Assembly: GCA_965248925.1 (NCBI GenBank)
Contig: CBDFLE010000006.1
Coordinates: 1,280,001 to 1,344,000 of the forward strand
Source: Candidatus Multivoradales bacterium
GTDB taxonomy: Bacteria; Acidobacteriota; Thermoanaerobaculia; Multivoradales; J023
Direction: 5' to 3'
DNA length: 64,000 bases
Translations under genes and position numbers: made by a program
Shown here: positions 40,730 to 49,405 of the stretch, piece after piece
Numbering within the stretch: the stretch's first letter is position 1
Layout of the letters: each line of letters opens with the position of its first letter
The notes under the pieces: generated by a model
The model's database searches: none
Told to the model about the DNA's origin: nothing
What the model saw: only the letters and a program-made list of their open reading frames with translations

Positions 40730-42361
40730 ATGCGTGGACAGATGATGGACCGACCGCTGTTGATCTCGTCGCTGATCGAGCACGCGGCGCTCTACCACCG
40801 CGAGATCGAGGTGGTGTCGCGGACTGTCGAGGGGCCGATCCACCGCTACACCTATCTGCAGGTACAAAAGCGCTCGAAGCAGCTGGCCAACGCCCTGGCC
40901 GGCCTCGGTATCGAACTCGGCGATCGGGTGGCAACGGTGGCCTGGAACGGCTTTCGCCACGTCGAACTCTATTTCGCCATCTCCGGCATGGGCGCGGTCT
41001 GCCACACCATCAACCCGCGGCTGCACCCCGACCAGCTGACGTACATCGTCAACCATGCCGAAGACAAAGTCATTTTCCTCGACCTGACTTTCGTCCCGCT
41101 ACTCGAAGCGGTGGCCGCTCAACTACCCACCGTAACCACCTACGTGGTGATGACCGATCGGCAGCACATGCCCGACACCTCACTGCCGGGTGCGCTGTGC
41201 TACGAAGATCTGCTGTCCGCCGCCAGCACCGATTTCGACTGGCCGCAATTCGACGAGAGCACCGCTTCCAGCTTGTGCTACACCTCCGGCACCACCGGCA
41301 ATCCCAAGGGAGTGCTCTACAGCCACCGCTCGACCGTGCTGCATTCGCTGGCGGCCTGCCAAGTAGACACCCTGGGCATCTCCTCGCAGGATGTCATCCT
41401 GCCCGTAGTACCGATGTTTCACGTCAATGCCTGGGGACTGCCCTACGCCTGTGCGATGTGCGGCGCCAAGATGGTGATGCCCGGCGCCCTGCTCGACGGC
41501 GCCAGCGTCTGGGAGTTACTCGACAGTGAACAAGTGACGATGACCGCCGGAGTGCCGACAGTGTGGCTGATGCTGCTCAACTACATGCGGGAGAATGACC
41601 TCGGCCTCAAAACCGTCGCTCGGGTGGTGATCGGTGGCTCGGCAGCTTCGCAATCGATGATCGAGGCTTTCCAGGACGAGTTCGGCACCCAGGTCATTCA
41701 CGCCTGGGGAATGACCGAGACCAGTCCACTGGGCACCATCGGCACTCTAAAAAGCAAGCACCGCCATTTGAGTGCTCAGGAACGGCTAGCCCTCCAGCTC
41801 AAGCAAGGTCGCGGGCTTTATGGCGTGGAGATGCGGATCGTCGATGAGGATGGCAACGAGCAACCGCGCGATGGCCAAGCCTTCGGCGAACTACAAGTAC
41901 GCGGGCCTTGGGTAGTGGGCGAATATTTTCGCCATCAGGGGAGTCCCACCCTAACCGCGGACGGCTGGTTCGCCACCGGCGATGTCTCGACCCTCGATGC
42001 GGATGGTTTCATGCAGATCACCGACCGCGCCAAGGATGTCATCAAGTCAGGGGGAGAGTGGATCTCTTCGATCGATCTGGAGAACGAGGCCGCCGCCCAT
42101 CCGAAGGTCGCCGAGGCGGCGGTCATCGGCGTTCCTCACCCCAAGTGGTCGGAACGTCCGATCCTGGTAGTGGTGCCAGTCAAGGGCGATCCACCGAGCA
42201 AGGAAGAACTGCTCGCCTTCCTCGACGGGCGGGTCGCCAAATGGTGGCTGCCGGACGACATGGTGCTGGTCGACGAACTCCCCCACACCGCCACCGGCAA
42301 GGTCTCGAAACGAACCCTGCGCCGCCAGCTGGCCGACTATCGCTTGCCCGACGCTGACTGA
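40730..42361 (+). CDS. Medium/long-chain acyl-CoA ligase (AlkK/DmdB-like)
   Basis: [46 protein letters not shown]. Confidence 0.93.
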
Positions 42362-42372
42362 GGGCAACTGCG

Positions 42373-43080
42373 ATGAGCGTGCTGGTACTGATTCGTCATG
42401 GTCAGGCATCGGCCCACACCGACGACTACGACCGCCTATCACCCCTCGGCGAAGAACAAGCTCGGATCTTGGGCCAATATTGGACCGCTCGCGGCGAACG
42501 CTTCGACCGGGTCTTGGTCGGGCCGCTTCGCCGCCAACGCCAAACTCACGCTGCGGTGCGCCAAGCTTACCAACGACAGGGCCAGAGCTGGCCGCTGCCC
42601 GAGACCTGTGATGCCCTGGCCGAACACCACGGCCCGACGGTCCTCCGCCAAGCGATCGCTAACGGCGACTTGGAGCATGAGGGCGTTGGCGCACAGAACG
42701 CCGACGGCAGCTTTAGCGAGATGCTCAAAGACCCGTCGATCTTCACCCGCTGGAGCAGGCGCTGGGCCAGCGGTGAGCAACCAACGCCGACCGAACTCGA
42801 GAGCTGGTCAGCCTTTCGCCAACGGGTACGAAGCGAGCTTAACAAGATCTTCGCCACTACTGAGCGCGGCCAACGGGTGGTGGCATTCACCTCCGGCGGA
42901 GTGGTGGCGGCAGCGGTGGGCACGGTCTTCAAGCTGCCACCGACGCCAGTGATCGAGCTCAGCTGGCGGATTCGCAACGCTTCGATCAACGAAATCCTGT
43001 TCCGCGAGCACCAGGCGATGCTCCACACCCTCAATACCGTTCCCCATCTACAGGAAGATCGGTTGCTGACCTATGTTTGA
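42373..43080 (+). CDS. Histidine phosphatase family protein
   Basis: LIRHGQAS, LRRQRQT, FTSGG. Confidence 0.9.
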   Translation: MSVLVLIRHGQASAHTDDYDRLSPLGEEQARILGQYWTARGERFDRVLVGPLRRQRQTHAAVRQAYQRQGQSWPLPETCDALAEHHGPTVLRQAIANGDLEHEGVGAQNADGSFSEMLKDPSIFTRWSRRWASGEQPTPTELESWSAFRQRVRSELNKIFATTERGQRVVAFTSGGVVAAAVGTVFKLPPTPVIELSWRIRNASINEILFREHQAMLHTLNTVPHLQEDRLLTYV

Positions 43081-43179
43081 CCCACTTCCCAAGACCTAAG
43101 TACAAGTAAAATATCTTTCATTTCGCAAATTGGAAGAAAGACCCCAACTTCCAGCTAGCCTAGAGTAGCCACTCTTCCA

Positions 43180-43261
43180 TCGGGTGCATCCGGTTCCTAG
43201 CGGGTGGTCGCTGACCACCTACACTTGCTCGCTAAACGTCTTCGGCCCTTCGCCGCCGACG
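43180..43261 (+). ncRNA. Candidate structured 5' leader, copy 1
   Basis: Three hairpins shared with copies 2 and 3, with compensatory changes. Confidence 0.5.
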
Positions 43262-43276
43262 AGAAGCGTTCAGAAG

Positions 43277-43852
43277 TTCGTGCATCGCTTCGACGATGCT
43301 TTCTTCGATGCCAAAGGCACCGCCTACACCCGCGTCCAGGTTCGTGCCCCCGCCTTTGAGAGCTTGAAGCCGGTCGAGACCCTCTGCGGCAATTTCGACG
43401 TCACCGTTACCTTGGACGGCGAACAACCGATCACCAAGATGCAGATCCTCCGCGATAGCACCGAGGGTGGCCGTTTCTTCTCTCCCATCTCAGTGATCGT
43501 CAAGCTCAACTTTGTCGCGGCCGATGGCAGCAAGCACGAGCCGCTGGTGATCAGCCGCCGCTTGGATTTCAAAGCGATGGACAACGGCCGTTGGACCGAG
43601 AGCCCGGCGAAGCACAACCTAGTGGCGAAGAGCTTCCTCTTGGTCGACACCAATGCCGATGGTGATCCCGATACCTACTTGCCTGGCACCTCCAATTTCA
43701 TCGCTAGCGCTGGCGAGCCCGTAGCTCCCGGTCAGAAGGCACAGTCGATCATCCAACAGCCGAGTGATTGTCACTGTGAATACGCCACTTGCGGCCATCA
43801 GCACTGCATCACCGTGCCAACCGACGATTGTGGCGGCTATGTGTGTCGCTAG
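43277..43852 (+). pseudogene. Secreted CHCxxxxCGHxHC-tail protein, paralog 1 (RBS, start and ~85 codons deleted)
   Basis: Homology to 44228-45052 starts at VHRFDDA, directly after the leader motif. Confidence 0.8.
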
Positions 43853-43933
43853 TCAACGCCGATAGCTTGGTCAACTTAGGGTCGGCGGTCATCCGCTGCC
43901 AATATTGAACTGCGAGCCATCTTGAGTTCGCCC

Positions 43934-43976
43934 GGTGCCGAGCCACCTGTGGGTGGCCGGCGCCCTCTTCTTCTTT
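43934..43976 (+). terminator. Terminator hairpin after paralog 1
   Basis: GGTGCCG-a-GCCAC/GTGGC-CGGCGCC followed by a CT-rich tail. Confidence 0.65.
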
Positions 43977-44109
43977 CGATCTCTCAATAGCAGCGGTTGG
44001 CGGCGTGCCGATCCGAAAGACCAGGCCACTGGGTCCTCGAAGATGAGCATTTCGCAAGACGGAAGAAGCGTCCGGCCGATCACTGAATTAACCTCTCCCC
44101 ATCGTTGGA

Positions 44110-44192
44110 TCGGATTTATCCGGCACCTAGCGGGCGGTCGAAGGCCGCCTACCATGCGCACCGACCTGCTACCGGCTCGTAGCCGCTGGTAG
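44110..44192 (+). ncRNA. Candidate structured 5' leader, copy 2
   Basis: CGGA-N4-TCCG; CCTAG; GGCGGTC/GGCCGCC; CTACCGGCT/AGCCG..GGTAG. Confidence 0.5.
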
Positions 44193-44227
44193 AAGGTGCG
44201 CTGAACCCCGTCCTAGGGAGAACTAGA

Positions 44228-45052
44228 ATGCGTAAGTTCTTGCTCTTGACCGGCCTCGCCCTACTTCTCATCGCCCTACCTGCCGCCGCCGATTCGGTGA
44301 TCTACAGCGGTGTCGACCTCTGGACCAGCTCAAGCGACGGCTCGACACAGTCAAGCTTCGCCGAAGAAGCGATTCCGGCCAACTTCTTCTGCAGCGGCTC
44401 GGAGCCGTTCACCGGTGTTATCAAATTCCGCGGCCAGCCGTTGGCAACCGAGCCCGCCGGACTGCTGGGCAAAGTCGACACCATCGTGCATCGCCTCGAC
44501 GATGCATATTTCGGCGCCAAAGGCATCGCGGATACCCGTATTCAGGTGCGCGCCCTGGCCTTCGAGAGCCTTGAGGCAATTGATACCACCTGTGGCAAGT
44601 TCAACGTCACCGTGGTGCTCGATGGTGAGCAGCCGATCACCAAGATGCGGATCTTGCGTGACAACGAGAAAGGCGGCGCCTTCTTCTCGCCGATCTCGGT
44701 GCAGGTCAGCATGAATTTCAGCCACGCTAGCGGTCGCCTGCACGAGCCACTGTCCATCAGCCGCCGGCTGGACTTCGCGCCAATGGGCAACGGTCGCTGG
44801 ACTAGCGAAGCGTTCGAGGGCCAGGTCACCGCCAAGGGCTTCGTGCTGGTCGACACCAACGCCGACGGCCAGCCCGACACCTACCTGCCTGGTACTTCGA
44901 ACTTCAATGCCCATGCTGGTTCGGTCGACATCGACGGCTTAGGCCAGAAGGCGATCATCGCGCCGGTCGACTGCCACTGCGAGTTCGAGTCGTGCGGGCA
45001 TCGCCACTGCATCGCCAATTGCGGCGGTGGTACCCAATACGCGTGTCCGTAA
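44228..45052 (+). CDS. Secreted CHCxxxxCGHxHC-tail protein, paralog 2 (intact)
   Basis: RBS GGAG; signal peptide; beta-rich body; VDTNADG.PDTYLPGTSNF; tail DCHCEFESCGHRHCIANC...ACP. Confidence 0.9.
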   Translation: MRKFLLLTGLALLLIALPAAADSVIYSGVDLWTSSSDGSTQSSFAEEAIPANFFCSGSEPFTGVIKFRGQPLATEPAGLLGKVDTIVHRLDDAYFGAKGIADTRIQVRALAFESLEAIDTTCGKFNVTVVLDGEQPITKMRILRDNEKGGAFFSPISVQVSMNFSHASGRLHEPLSISRRLDFAPMGNGRWTSEAFEGQVTAKGFVLVDTNADGQPDTYLPGTSNFNAHAGSVDIDGLGQKAIIAPVDCHCEFESCGHRHCIANCGGGTQYACP

Positions 45053-45108
45053 GCAATACCCGCAATTCCGGCACTTGGTCACTTGACCGCTAATGCCGGT
45101 TCGGCAAG

Positions 45109-45145
45109 GGCGCCGCACCACCCCCCTTCGGTGGCCGGTGTCTTT
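45109..45145 (+). terminator. Terminator hairpin after paralog 2
   Basis: GGCGCCG..CCAC/GTGG.CGGTGTC followed by TTT. Confidence 0.55.
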
Positions 45146-45292
45146 GACGTCTGATCTCATGGTGGCAACAGCTCGACGTGGCCCGCGACGGGTTGGAGTG
45201 ATTCCGCGCTGTCCGAACCTTGGACAATTCGCAAGATGAAAAAAGCGCCCGCCTGGAATTCGGATTAACGTTCTCTCACGTTTATCGGTTTG

Positions 45293-45373
45293 TCGGATGT
45301 TTCCGGTTCCTAGTTGGCGGCCAGCAGCCGCCTACCTCGCTCGTCTCGTGCTTTCGACCTTCTGTCGTCGGCG
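45293..45373 (+). ncRNA. Candidate structured 5' leader, copy 3
   Basis: CGGA-N4-TCCG; CCTAG; GGCGGC/GCCGCC; CGAC/GTCG. Confidence 0.5.
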
Positions 45374-45412
45374 TGCAGCGTGCAAAACCCTGTTCGCAGG
45401 GAGAATCTCGAA

Positions 45413-45936
45413 ATGCGTAAGTTTTTGCTCTTGACCGGCCTCGCTGTGCTGCTTCTTGCCCTGCCGGCCGTCGCCGACTCGGTGATCTATAGCGGTATCG
45501 ATCTGTGGAAGACCATGGAGATCCTCCGCGATAGCGCCGAGGGTGCCGCTTCTTCTCGCCCATCTCGGTCATCATCAAGCTCAGTTTCACCGCCTCTGAT
45601 GGCGGCAGCCATGAGCCCCTGGTGATCAGCCGGCGTTTGGATTTCAAAGCGATGGACGACGGCAGTTGGACCGAGAACCCGGGCAAAAGCCGCATCGTAG
45701 CCAAGAGCTTCGTCGTGGTCGAAACCGACGCCGACGGTGAGCCCGACACCTACCTGCCTGGCACCTCGAACTTCAACCCCTCCTCCTCAGCACCCGCGGC
45801 GCCAGGTCAGAAGTTGGCCGACACCAACGGTTGTCACTGTGACTACGAGACCTGCGGTCATGTGCACTGCATCGGCGTGCCAATCGACGACGACTGTGGT
45901 GATACCTCCTTCGGCAACGTGCAGATTTGCCAGTAG
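45413..45936 (+). pseudogene. Secreted CHCxxxxCGHxHC-tail protein, paralog 3 (internal deletion + frameshift)
   Basis: MRKFLLLTGLA...SGIDLW jumps to TMEILRD (~100 codons missing); 1-nt shift near 45547; tail GCHCDYETCGHVHCI. Confidence 0.85.
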
Positions 45937-46001
45937 TCCTGATCCTGTCGGATCGGCGATCCTGAGTCGACGGTGAAGGGTATGCCGATTCGAGTTTGTT
46001 C

Positions 46002-46042
46002 GGCGCCGCGCCACTCTTGGGTGGCCGGCGCCCTCTCTATTT
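46002..46042. terminator. Terminator hairpin after paralog 3 (convergent with the degV-like gene)
   Basis: GGCGCCG-c-GCCAC/GTGGC-CGGCGCC. Confidence 0.65.
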
Positions 46043-46068
46043 GGTCTGTTGGCAGTATCTGTAGCCGA

Positions 46069-47862
46069 CTAGCGTAGTGGCGCCAGCATTTCGACTTCGT
46101 CTTCGAGCGGCTGAAACAGCACCGCACCGACCGCCCCCGGCCCAACATGGGCGCCTACCACCGGCCCCATCTCGCCAACGATCAGCTCTTGCACCTTGAA
46201 TTGCGCTTCGATGTGCTCGCGCAGCAGATCCCCCCAGACCGGGGCGGCTGCGTGGGCAACACCGACGATGGTGGGTAGGTCGGGGTCGGTGGCCTCAATC
46301 AATCGTTGCATCATGCGCTCGATAGCCGCCCGATTGCCACGACCACGATCCACCGCCACGATCTCTCCACCGACCACTCCCAGCACCGGCTTGATGCCGA
46401 GCAGCTTGCCGACCAACGCCCGCGCTCTACCAATGCGGCCACCACGAACCAGGTATTCCAATGTGTCGACCACGAATAACGTAGGCATGCGTTCGACCAT
46501 GCCGCGGAGGCGCTCGGCGACTTCGACGGCCGACAATCCTCGCTCTACCATGCGCGCCGCGAACAGGCTTTGCAAACCCAAGCCGATAGTGACTTGAGCA
46601 CTGTCCACCGTTTGGATTTGTAGCCGTTGAGAGGGCGTAGAAGCAACGGGCAACATACCTTTGGCAGCCATCCAAGAATGTCTGAAGGTCTCCGACAACT
46701 TGCTCGAGATATGCACCGACACCACTTCCTTCTCGCCGGTCAGCTGAGCATAGAGGGCACTGAACTCCTGCGGTGATGGCGGCGTGGTGAAAGGGTGATC
46801 GCCGCTACTTTGCAGCAGCTCATAGAACTCGCTGTTACTCAGGTCGATACCGTCGAGAAATACCTTGTCACCAAAGGTCACGGTCAGTGGCACGACGTGA
46901 ATCCGGTGTGCCGCGGCAAGCTCTTTGGGCAGGTCGGCGGTCGAATCGGTGACCACCGCTACTGTCGGCTCAGGGTCGGACAACAGCAGCAAGCCGCTAC
47001 TTTCGAGGCGACGCAAGGCAGCGATCAGCCGGCTATCAGTCTCGGTCAACGCGTCGAGCAACTCACCGAGGGCGGAAAGGGAATGCAGCGCCACCAAGAT
47101 CTCCATCTCCGCCGGCTCGAGCTGACGCTCGAGCACGTTGGCGCCAGCTTGGGGACATACCCAGCTGCGCAGATCAGGGAAATCTGCCAAGCAATCCTCG
47201 ACTGCCCGCGCCAGCAGTTCGTCGCTGCCCAGATGCAGGTTGCGACGAATTCGGGTGGGGTCTGGGAACACCCGGAAGGGGCCTTCGCCATGCCGCGCCA
47301 GGCGGCAGAAAGCCTTGAGCCCCGCCGCGCGACGGGTACGGGCCGCCACCGGCTCGCCGGCCTGCAACGCGATCGAGCCATAGCGGGTCTGCAACTGACC
47401 GGTGAAGCGAGTTTCCACCAATGCTGGAATCAGCTCGAAGAAGGGCTTGCGGCCCAGATCACCAACCAACGAATTGGCATGCAGGTTGGGCTCGACGCCC
47501 AGTTCTCGGCCCAACATCAACAGTCGCAGGCGGGCTAGCAGATCGCCTTCGCCCAGCTCTGCCCGGCTGACGAACAAGACCTCGTCCGGCAGCTGGCTCG
47601 CCTCGCGCTGGCTGCGCCCAACCGCCAAGATCGGCGTTGGCGTCGCCCGCGCCAGTTCGAGCAGCTCGGCACCTTCACTGGCATCGAGCAACAGCTCGCT
47701 GGCCATCACCACCATCCACGGCTCAAGGGCGGCGGCGAAACGCACCGCGTCTGCGGCACGGCCTACCGGCACAACTTCGTAACCGGCTTCGGTCAGGCCG
47801 ACGCTCAACGCCCGCCGGCTCTCGGCTTGCGGGTCGACAATCATGACTACGGGTCGCGACAT
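46069..47862 (-). CDS. Pseudo-receiver + DUF4388-like + DegV (FakB-type fatty-acid binding) fusion
   Basis: Start MSRPVVMIVD; VGDLGRKPFFELI (DUF4388-like); VVTDSTADLP, HISSKLS, GGRIG, HVGPG (DegV). Confidence 0.88.
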   Translation of the reverse strand: MSRPVVMIVDPQAESRRALSVGLTEAGYEVVPVGRAADAVRFAAALEPWMVVMASELLLDASEGAELLELARATPTPILAVGRSQREASQLPDEVLFVSRAELGEGDLLARLRLLMLGRELGVEPNLHANSLVGDLGRKPFFELIPALVETRFTGQLQTRYGSIALQAGEPVAARTRRAAGLKAFCRLARHGEGPFRVFPDPTRIRRNLHLGSDELLARAVEDCLADFPDLRSWVCPQAGANVLERQLEPAEMEILVALHSLSALGELLDALTETDSRLIAALRRLESSGLLLLSDPEPTVAVVTDSTADLPKELAAAHRIHVVPLTVTFGDKVFLDGIDLSNSEFYELLQSSGDHPFTTPPSPQEFSALYAQLTGEKEVVSVHISSKLSETFRHSWMAAKGMLPVASTPSQRLQIQTVDSAQVTIGLGLQSLFAARMVERGLSAVEVAERLRGMVERMPTLFVVDTLEYLVRGGRIGRARALVGKLLGIKPVLGVVGGEIVAVDRGRGNRAAIERMMQRLIEATDPDLPTIVGVAHAAAPVWGDLLREHIEAQFKVQELIVGEMGPVVGAHVGPGAVGAVLFQPLEDEVEMLAPLR

Positions 47863-47878
47863 CGTCCGATCCAAAGGC

Positions 47879-49405
47879 TCAGAAAAGACCCAAAAGACTC
47901 GCCAGATCGGCAGGAGTATTCGATAGCACTCGCACCTGTTCGAGATTGGCAATAATCTCTTGAGCGCGCCGACGAACCCTCTCATCCGCGGCCACCACCA
48001 AACCCGAACGACGGCGGCCCGGAGCGGTCAGCCTGGCTACCAACTTGCGTAAGGCCAGGTCAGATGATTTGTCTTGGTCCTCACTACCAAGCCAAATCAC
48101 CAACCCAGAGCATAGCGGCAGCACCGCCGTGTGCTGGTCCAAACCACCACGCAGCGGATAGAGGTGCAGCGATAACCGGCCGGCACCATTCTCGACCGTG
48201 CAAGTGCCACCGTGAGTCGTCGCCAGTTGTTCGCGCAAGCGCCCCCAAGCATCCTCGGCAAAGCTGTCCGGCAACTGCAAGACAAGACCGACGATCAACG
48301 GCCAAGAGCTCTCCTCGGCCAAGAAAAGCAAGTGCACGTGGCTGTCGCCAGCGGCCTTGCAAATTTTATGCACCGCCGCATACATCTTGCGCACGGTGGC
48401 TCTATCTCTATCCTGAGGCGGGCTCTCAAGCCCCACCGTGACGCCGTCCTGGGCAACCACGAAGCCGGCCTCGACCAACACTGCAATGGTCGCGTCAAGG
48501 GTGGCCGGTGCCGCCAGCGCCGCCTCGTGCAGCGCGGCAAACGAACTCGGCCCTCGCTGTCGCAGGAAGCCCAGAACCGACTCCACCGGTAGGGAGTCAA
48601 GCCCGTGTTCGAGCCGAGGCGTTCCGCGAACCACCGAGCGCAGCACCGCATGGCGACTGGGCAAGCTATCCTTCCTTCGTCGCAGCTCGTCCTGCAACCA
48701 CGAATGACGCAGCAACATCGATTGAAAATCTGCCATCGGCAGGGTCGACAGAGTCACCGAGGAATCGTCGACATCGCCCAGACGGAACTGGAATGAGCCT
48801 TCGCCCAGGTCGAGCAAGGCGAGCAGTGCTTCGTCGCCGTGCAGCATGCCGTAGGTGGCGGCTTCGATCTGGCCGCGGCCAAACCGCACCTCTGCCGGCG
48901 ACAATTCGACCGACAATCGCAGCGTGCCGGTGCGGCGGCTGCGCTCGAGCGACTGCATCAGCTCCCAACAGGGGTAGGTGTCCAAATTGCCCGAGATATC
49001 GGCTTTCGGCAAGCTGGCGCCCAGCAGGCGCTCGAGCCGCAGCACTAGCTCTTCCGGGTCGAAGGGTTTGGCCAAGTAGTCCGAAGCGCCGGCCCGCAGC
49101 CCCCGAACCCGATCTGCCTTGGTATCCAGAGCGGACAGCATCAGCACTGGCAGGGAGGCTGTTTCGGACCGTGCTCGCAGGCTTTTCAGCAGATCGAGAC
49201 CGGAGATCTCAGGCATCGACACATCGAGAACCGCGGCATCAAAATCGCGCGCCGCGACCAAGCCATCCACTCTGCGCGGATCACGACAGGTGGTGACCTC
49301 TAACCCAGCAGCTTCCAAAGTCGAATCCAGCATCAGCAACAGGTCGGGATCGTCGTCGACCACCAAGATTCTAGGCACTGCTGCTCTCCTCTTCCTGCCC
49401 ACCAT
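47879..49405 (-). CDS. Response regulator with DUF4388-like domain and C-terminal alpha/beta domain
   Basis: ILVVDDD, VLDVSMP, DYLAKPF; ISGNLDTYPCWELMQSLE...TGTLRL. Confidence 0.88.
   Translation of the reverse strand: MVGRKRRAAVPRILVVDDDPDLLLMLDSTLEAAGLEVTTCRDPRRVDGLVAARDFDAAVLDVSMPEISGLDLLKSLRARSETASLPVLMLSALDTKADRVRGLRAGASDYLAKPFDPEELVLRLERLLGASLPKADISGNLDTYPCWELMQSLERSRRTGTLRLSVELSPAEVRFGRGQIEAATYGMLHGDEALLALLDLGEGSFQFRLGDVDDSSVTLSTLPMADFQSMLLRHSWLQDELRRRKDSLPSRHAVLRSVVRGTPRLEHGLDSLPVESVLGFLRQRGPSSFAALHEAALAAPATLDATIAVLVEAGFVVAQDGVTVGLESPPQDRDRATVRKMYAAVHKICKAAGDSHVHLLFLAEESSWPLIVGLVLQLPDSFAEDAWGRLREQLATTHGGTCTVENGAGRLSLHLYPLRGGLDQHTAVLPLCSGLVIWLGSEDQDKSSDLALRKLVARLTAPGRRRSGLVVAADERVRRRAQEIIANLEQVRVLSNTPADLASLLGLF

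Follow-up and report, generated by a model that had tools for sequence, protein, structure and literature searches.

What do three structured leaders contribute to the transcripts that are predicted to carry them, when only one of the three genes behind them is intact? The question is raised by a 64,000-nucleotide stretch of DNA (the window) from contig CBDFLE010000006.1 of Candidatus Multivoradales bacterium, whose genome comprises 7.98 Mb in 6 contigs and is 96.9% complete. Positions 43081-46060 of the window hold three tandem copies of one transcription unit on the + strand, and the leader of each copy is a folded RNA of about 100 bases. It is suggested here, with moderate confidence, that this is a lineage-specific structured leader acting on the stability or translation of the messenger RNA (mRNA), and not a ligand-sensing aptamer. 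The fold itself is well supported as conserved beyond chance.

The leaders consist of three hairpins, H1 to H3, which were delimited with RNAalifold as follows.

43180-43271, + strand: leader of copy 1, with H1 at 43180-43193, CCTAG at 43196-43200, H2 at 43202-43220 and the long H3 at 43227-43271.
44110-44201, + strand: leader of copy 2, with H1 at 44110-44123, CCTAG at 44126-44130, H2 at 44132-44150 and the long H3 at 44156-44201.
45293-45383, + strand: leader of copy 3, with H1 at 45293-45306, CCTAG at 45309-45313, H2 at 45315-45333 and the long H3 at 45339-45383.

The consensus fold was computed from 43170-43275, 44100-44206 and 45283-45388 and contains 28 pairs, namely five in H1, eight in H2 and 15 in a long interrupted stem. 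A preliminary description of the locus, made from its letters, had located all three hairpin motifs correctly, and the invariant CCTAG after H1 and the invariant TAC after H2 that it listed are both present. In the RNA, the bases after H1, H2 and H3 are GUUCCUAG, UAC and GAAC/AAAC/CAGA, respectively. The substitutions reported for H2 were likewise recovered, with T-A replaced by C-G at one pair and a second pair reading T-A/T-G/C-G. H3 indeed carries CGGC/GCCG in copies 1 and 2 and CGAC/GTCG in copy 3; the hairpin that had been described is merely the apex of the 15-pair interrupted stem.

The three hairpins are independent of each other and form no multi-helix junction. No junction or pseudoknot candidate appears in the consensus fold, the linkers vary between copies, and the loops differ in every copy. 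Invariant columns make up 33 of the 56 paired and 9 of the 35 unpaired ones in the leader. Conservation is concentrated in the H1-CCTAG-H2-TAC module (27 of 43 columns invariant, vs 14 of 45 in H3), and six of the eight pairs that changed on both sides fall in the long H3 stem. Homology between the units begins about 60 nucleotides upstream of H1, at a conserved box. A leader peptide was rejected as an explanation, as the open reading frames in the leaders vary in frame and presence among the copies.

Several controls bear on whether this fold exceeds chance. Standard pairs occupy 79 of 84 pair cells (94.0%), vs 88.7 +/- 1.8 in shuffles, none of 500 of which reach the observed value; when the partners are slid by 1-3 columns, only 32-54% of cells pair. 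Both sides have changed at 8 of 28 pairs; shuffles give 3.8 +/- 1.4 such pairs (0 of 500 reach eight), and slid partners give 0-4. Because the three sequences under test had also supplied the structure, alignment columns were shuffled and refolded as well. In this comparison the consensus energy is -37.0, vs -18.1 +/- 3.3 for the shuffles (RNAalifold; z -5.8, 0 of 300). Folded singly, copy 2 gives a z of -3.28 on the + strand and -0.02 on the - strand; copies 1 (-1.59) and 3 (-1.04) are weak, on either strand.

The age of the copies gives these numbers their weight. Synonymous divergence (dS) in the shared C-terminal part of the genes is 0.77 between copies 1 and 3, 1.31 between 2 and 3, and 2.26 between 1 and 2. 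The ratio of non-synonymous to synonymous divergence (dN/dS) is 0.15-0.32 among the copies and 0.31 between the broken copies 1 and 3. Any two copies are 58-65% identical over H1-H3, 64-82% over coding DNA and 45-53% over the flanking non-coding DNA. Judged by their sequences, the copies are old tandem duplicates. Unconstrained stems would have decayed at a synonymous divergence of 0.77-2.3, and since the stems are still 94% paired at such divergence, selection on pairing is indicated.

The pairing also favours one strand. Among the 84 cells, 66 are Watson-Crick pairs, 13 are G-U pairs on the + strand, 2 are G-U pairs on the - strand only, and 3 are unpaired on both. The structure is thus conserved and strand-biased, with 79 cells paired on the + strand vs 68 on the - strand. 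An excess of G-U pairs, together with arms that co-vary inside a single genome, points to a sense-strand RNA rather than a palindromic operator.

The hairpins are preceded by predicted promoters. A standard sigma-70 scan found no + strand promoter here, and there is no TTGACA-like -35 element. The conserved box at which unit homology starts is 19 nucleotides long and asymmetric (TTCGCAAGATGGAAGAAGC), and a -10-like element follows it in each copy.

43122-43166, + strand: predicted promoter of copy 1, with box TTCGCAAATTGGAAGAAAG at 43122-43140, -10-like TAGAGT at 43161-43166 and a start at about 43172-43174.
44051-44094, + strand: predicted promoter of copy 2, with box TTCGCAAGACGGAAGAAGC at 44051-44069, -10-like TAACCT at 44089-44094 and a start at about 44100-44102.
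45228-45271, + strand: predicted promoter of copy 3, with box TTCGCAAGATGAAAAAAGC at 45228-45246, -10-like TAACGT at 45266-45271 and a start at about 45277-45279.

The box is read as standing in for the -35 region, which would place +1 between 7 and 15 nucleotides before H1. Because the predicted starts precede H1, the hairpins probably belong to the 5' untranslated region (UTR). A structured 5' UTR, as initially proposed, therefore remains the best reading of a conserved, strand-biased fold downstream of a predicted promoter. Directly after the -10 element comes a pyrimidine tract (CTCTCCCC, TCTCTC, CTCTTCC) with complementarity to the Shine-Dalgarno sequence. The tract precedes the predicted +1, does not occur in other box promoters, and is not relied on here.

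Behind the leaders, the genes and the ends of the units are arranged as follows.

43265-43852, + strand: gene remnant of copy 1, matching residues ~82-267 of copy 2 (tblastn, open reading frame list and unit alignment).
43951-43975, + strand: terminator-like hairpin of copy 1, GGGTGGCCGGCGCCC with a T-rich tail (consensus scan).
44228-45052, + strand: gene of copy 2, the sole intact copy, encoding 274 amino acids, with the Shine-Dalgarno sequence GGGAGAA at 44216-44222.
45399-45936, + strand: broken gene of copy 3, with the Shine-Dalgarno sequence GGGAGAA at 45399-45405 and an ATG at 45414.
46019-46043, + strand: terminator-like hairpin of copy 3 (consensus scan).

The copy 2 protein has a signal peptide and a C-terminal Cys/His tail, CHCx4CGHxHC. 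The leader had been placed before each of three paralogs; it does stand at all three copies, whereas only copy 2 offers a complete gene. In copy 1 the leader is fused directly to the middle of the gene, at about codon 82-87: the first 82-87 codons are missing, and with them the signal peptide, ribosome-binding site and start codon. Copy 3 has lost codons ~34-139 through an internal deletion of ~106 codons and carries a frameshift, a deletion of one nucleotide near 45546, that leaves the tail in another frame (45622-45936). The region 43000-46100 is reproduced with 0 differences and 0 gaps in independently assembled contigs from four runs of one sample, which is possibly the window's own source. 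As these contigs match exactly, the gene lesions of copies 1 and 3 are not errors of the present assembly. Both broken copies retain the promoter box, the -10 element, all three hairpins and the terminator. Unit alignment places a homologous block 3' of every unit, copy 2 included, and because this block and the terminator-like hairpins close the units, each copy looks like a complete unit.

The leader appears to be confined to this array. No match at the gathering threshold was found in the whole window among 4227 Rfam models (Rfam 15), in agreement with the earlier failure to recognise a known riboswitch. With permissive filters, 42000-47000 yielded only LhrC (expect value (E) 9.9, 21 bits vs 110 needed, at 43091-43179, upstream of H1) and mir-1662 (E 4.4, on the - strand within the copy 3 gene). 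A covariance model of the leader, R1, scores its own copies at 106.9, 108 and 106.4 bits for copies 1, 2 and 3, respectively (E about 1e-26). In the 8-Mb genome it recovers only these three copies, the next match having an E of 1.9; BLAST with the leader across the genome found nothing else below E 2.4. No credible match was obtained in 23 genomes of the same family (best E 0.10), nor in 79 Thermoanaerobaculia loci holding the protein family, where the best match (E 0.097) is not upstream of a gene. In metagenome contigs, an exact IUPAC pattern of the leader gave 0 matches, and a scan for close relatives of the protein gave 0 confirmed relatives among 99 pattern matches. A dispersed repeat, of the repetitive extragenic palindrome or miniature inverted-repeat transposable element type (REP/MITE-like), was ruled out, as only the three tandem copies rise above noise in 7.98 Mb.

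Decay of the leader can be followed in a paralog of 69% identity in the same genome (G000:C6:894472, - strand), where R1 reaches only 11.7 bits. H2 persists with a larger loop and one of eight pairs non-standard; H1 has two of its five pairs non-standard, CCUAG has given way to other bases, and 10 nucleotides stand in place of the inner 33 of H3. A four-sequence model alignment that included this paralog also drew in reverse-strand half-matches, and the alignment was left out of the counts. In another genus of the same taxonomic family, two tandem paralogs (L028) share a different leader of ~240 nucleotides with several hairpins. Some changes in its arms preserve pairing, and a segment adjacent to the start codon is also kept in a third genus (L029).

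The proposed mechanism can be outlined as follows. Each unit would open with the promoter box and the -10 element, continue with the leader and the gene of the secreted Cys/His-tailed protein, and close with a terminator. The sense-strand leader would fold into a short 5'-proximal H1, a G+C-rich H2 and the long interrupted H3, in which selection preserved the pairing and let the sequence drift. Close to the 5' end, stable hairpins may slow 5'-end-dependent decay by enzymes of the ribonuclease (RNase) E/G type, and could also set ribosome access to a partly occluded Shine-Dalgarno sequence. Two RNase E/G family proteins are encoded in the genome (PF10150 matches at E 1e-95 and 1e-94, both above cut-off). 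In the predicted folds most of the Shine-Dalgarno sequence is paired, its mean unpaired probability being 0.14 in copy 2 and 0.41 in copy 3. Two further mechanisms were rejected. An intrinsic terminator or attenuator was ruled out, as none of the hairpins has a U tract, and a terminator scan inside 43172-43271, 44101-44227 and 45278-45413 flagged no site. Pairing of CCUAG with CUAGG at the Shine-Dalgarno sequence works in copy 2 only and was rejected as a shared mechanism.

Several observations weigh against a leader that acts on stability or translation. The predicted pairing partners of the Shine-Dalgarno sequence differ between copies 2 and 3, and its occlusion may be incidental. A classic 5' stabiliser tolerates few unpaired 5' nucleotides. 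Counted from the predicted start, ~7-15 unpaired nucleotides precede H1, which is above this tolerance. In folds computed from that predicted start, the first paired nucleotide lies at +3 in copy 2, +7 in copy 1 and +10 in copy 3. Promoter and transcription start are themselves predictions from sequence. The H1-CCTAG-H2-TAC module is conserved in sequence, with CCTAG at 0.30 of expectation in the genome, and this conservation hints at a sequence-specific recognition that a pure stability element would not need. A specific RNA-binding factor for the leader is therefore possible. At least eight "compensatory" pairs were reached in 16 of 300 refolded shuffles, and the covariation count by itself, with three sequences, is marginal. 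The - strand gives a consensus-fold z of -5.2, near the + strand value, so that this statistic cannot separate the strands. Finally, the first 60 nucleotides of 13 box-driven predicted 5' ends have a mean z of -0.68, with 5 of 13 below -1. As these ends are not clearly more structured than shuffles, no general rule of structured 5' ends holds for the family.

In a first alternative, the leader would respond to a trans-acting factor or a ligand, as an orphan riboswitch or as a site for an RNA-binding protein or small RNA. H1-CCUAG-H2-UAC would be the sensor and H3 a spacer. In its favour, the single-stranded CCUAG and UAC are invariant despite a dS above 0.77, more of the module is invariant than of H3 (27 of 43 columns vs 14 of 45), CCTAG stands at 0.30 of its genome-wide expectation, no Rfam family matches, and a dedicated promoter box on the family genes suggests coordinated control. 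A sensor of this kind sits poorly with the 69% paralog, which lacks CCUAG, has two of five H1 pairs non-standard and a shortened H3, and with the lack of a credible model match in the 23 same-family genomes or the 79 family loci. Riboswitch cores are generally conserved across phyla, and no literature on riboswitches in Thermoanaerobaculia was found. Nor does the leader resemble an aptamer: its hairpins are independent and its loops variable, no terminator or shared platform was found, and it decays rapidly beyond the three paralogs. The CsrA gene was not found in the 96.9%-complete genome, and the GGA of H1 is not kept in copy 1. Moreover, the encoded protein is secreted and would give no feedback on its own mRNA. 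Such a sensor is considered unlikely. The suggestion in the preliminary description that the leader is metal- or protein-responsive finds no backing: there is no junction, and neither a shared platform nor a copy in the other genomes searched was found. A broader version is rather improbable. In it, the sensor module of an orphan RNA restricted to the genus would join a family-wide activator-dependent box in controlling the secreted Cys/His-tailed family of Thermoanaerobaculia, and the persistence of the leaders before two broken genes would mean that they also act in trans.

A second alternative places the function in the DNA, with H1 and H2 as inverted-repeat operators at +10 to +50 and the RNA fold as incidental. 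The H2 of copy 1 is a perfect 7+7 palindrome, the module lies just 3' of the predicted start and is conserved in sequence, and the - strand fold is almost as strong (z -5.2). Against this, duplex symmetry requires Watson-Crick pairing, which only 66 of 84 cells offer, and does not allow the 13 G-T cells. The arms co-vary within one genome (T-A to C-G), which would be unexpected of fixed repressor half-sites, and the six co-varying pairs of H3, with its little sequence conservation, fit RNA. An operator is accordingly held to be a distinctly improbable explanation.

No better placed is the notion that the hairpins have no function and are leftovers of duplication in a G+C-rich genome. Only three related sequences are available, eight compensatory pairs arose in 16 of 300 refolded shuffles, and the single-sequence z is weak in copies 1 (-1.59) and 3 (-1.04). 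These points are countered by the consensus-fold z of -5.8 (0 of 300 shuffles), by 94% pairing at 35-42% divergence with synonymous sites saturated, and by flanking non-coding DNA that is only 45-53% identical.

Least likely of all is that the leaders are small RNAs in their own right, kept despite broken genes and ending, in copy 1, at a hairpin at 43282-43299: copies 1 and 3 do keep the box, the -10 element, three hairpins and the terminator beside damaged genes, and the hairpin of copy 1 has a T-rich tail and lies 11 nucleotides past H3, but it is ordinary coding sequence that is also present in intact copy 2, no complementary target was found, and with dN/dS at 0.15-0.32 the genes were selected for most of their divergence, so that retention of the leader needs no separate function.

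The preferred reading, a lineage-specific leader that acts on stability or translation, concerns three units, while the box ahead of them extends further.

G000:C6:894655 (-), 1945097, 2826081 (-), 422463 and 423544; C5:1173314: further box sites (genome scan).

With up to two mismatches, the box occurs at 6 sites in 7.98 Mb, 5 of which precede family paralogs and 1 of which is an orphan. A weight matrix, trained on those same family sites, places it ahead of 9 of 11 family loci in the genome. Family genes of other Thermoanaerobaculia genomes have variants of it (TGAGCAATCTCGAAGAAGT and similar) ahead of them. The upstream 660 nucleotides of the 79 family loci contain 7 strong matches, and at a looser threshold 9 upstream matches vs 6 in 440,883 background bases. 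TAnnnT begins 19-21 nucleotides past the box in 15 of 19 instances, the random expectation being 2.2% of positions in a window of 17-23 nucleotides. Box and TAnnnT together resemble a promoter that depends on an activator or on an alternative sigma factor and that delimits a small regulon. Just as well as an activator site, the box could be a -35 element read by an alternative sigma factor, in which case the spacer is unusually long.

No family gene follows the orphan box (G000:C6:1967136, + strand; L007 1503-1521), which is directed into the 3' end of a convergent AraC-family gene (L007 1725-2606, - strand; HTH_18, E 5e-23); two distant paralogs lie ~7 kb further along. The AraC-family product may regulate the box, or its gene may be a target of antisense transcription. 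CTAG is scarce in the genome (observed/expected 0.48 with a mononucleotide model and 0.68 with a Markov model; CCTAG, 0.30), but box promoters repeatedly carry it in their -10 regions and the leaders in their invariant linker.

The genes behind these predicted promoters encode unannotated secreted proteins of ~270 amino acids, with invariant residues that include G28, D30, C55 and C122 and a variable Cys/His tail. By record titles, the genes of the window have their relatives in the class Thermoanaerobaculia of the Acidobacteriota. The family is widespread in the order (19 of 61 genomes, the host included) and multi-copy, its members often standing in tandem, with up to 21 matches per genome and a tandem array of seven members in one other genome. 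The copy 2 protein has no sequence match in Pfam, NCBIfam or the PDB, the best NCBIfam hit (E 0.053) covering the signal-peptide region only. Its AlphaFold2 model is all-beta with a predicted local distance difference test (pLDDT) score of 82.5, the tail (239-274) falling below 50. Foldseek returned no match for this model at E <= 0.001. The best VIA-align score, Z 7.3, was to small 8-stranded beta-barrels (OmpA, NspA, PagL) and falls in the noise band of the tool. In the ESM Atlas, only Acidobacteriota clusters named 'hypothetical protein' were found for the family.

Two genes on the opposite strand lie downstream of the array.

46069-47985, - strand: open reading frame of 638 amino acids, with a weak receiver-like/DUF4388 N-terminal part and a DegV domain (E 3.5e-78).
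47879-49405, - strand: gene of 508 amino acids, putatively a receiver-domain protein by its N-terminal sequence.

The former overlaps the end of the latter by ~100 nucleotides, and its true start probably lies further downstream.

Taken alone, a lineage-specific structured leader in one uncultured acidobacterial genome is a modest result. Its old paralogs, with dS above 0.77, provide a clean record of selection on RNA pairing. If the CCUAG/UAC module does bind a factor, a new regulatory RNA would be defined. Of more use, arguably, is a by-product, the family-wide promoter box. Together with TAnnnT it marks nearly all members of an unannotated family and is a better-supported signal than the hairpins, and it opens a first way into the promoters, and into one regulon, of a class in which hardly any genetics has been done.

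Among known systems, leaders regulated by CsrA/RsmA also carry hairpins upstream of a GGA-containing Shine-Dalgarno sequence. Here, the GGA of H1 lies in a stem and reads GGG in copy 1, and CsrA (PF02599) was not found in the 96.9%-complete genome, while control genomes were positive. On both counts, a CsrA-regulated leader was ruled out.

Metal riboswitches (NiCo/czcD, the Mn2+-responsive yybP-ykoY and the M-box) share with the leader a structured 5' UTR with some invariant single-stranded bases, and the downstream product here has a Cys/His-rich, possibly metal-binding tail. The present leader differs from them in having no Rfam match, no junction, variable loops and no conserved platform, and in being confined to three paralogs of one genome.

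The upstream box, unlike the hairpins, has a parallel in the marbox promoters of MarA, SoxS and Rob, which are activator-dependent class II promoters with an asymmetric site of ~20 bp overlapping the -35 region. The box is similarly asymmetric, ends 19-21 nucleotides before TAnnnT, is centred near -42 and is common to a set of genes, and its orphan copy neighbours an AraC-family gene. Its sequence is unlike the marbox consensus, and its regulator is only a candidate.

As a whole, the leader would find its closest functional analogue in the 5' stabiliser of the ompA type. Such 5' stem-loops shield mRNAs, that of E. coli ompA among them, from RNase E. The two differ in several respects: there is no similarity in sequence or model and no Rfam match, the predicted 5' single strand of 7-15 nucleotides is longer than in the protective arrangement, the H1-H2 module is conserved in sequence, and an effect on half-life is only proposed here. 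The ompA leader is ~130 nucleotides long with several hairpins, one of them near the 5' end, ahead of a gene for an exported protein, and the present leader, as predicted, would share these features. In addition, RNase E/G homologues are encoded in the present genome. A stabiliser of this kind would need no ligand, and it would depend on pairing over sequence, as is seen in H3.

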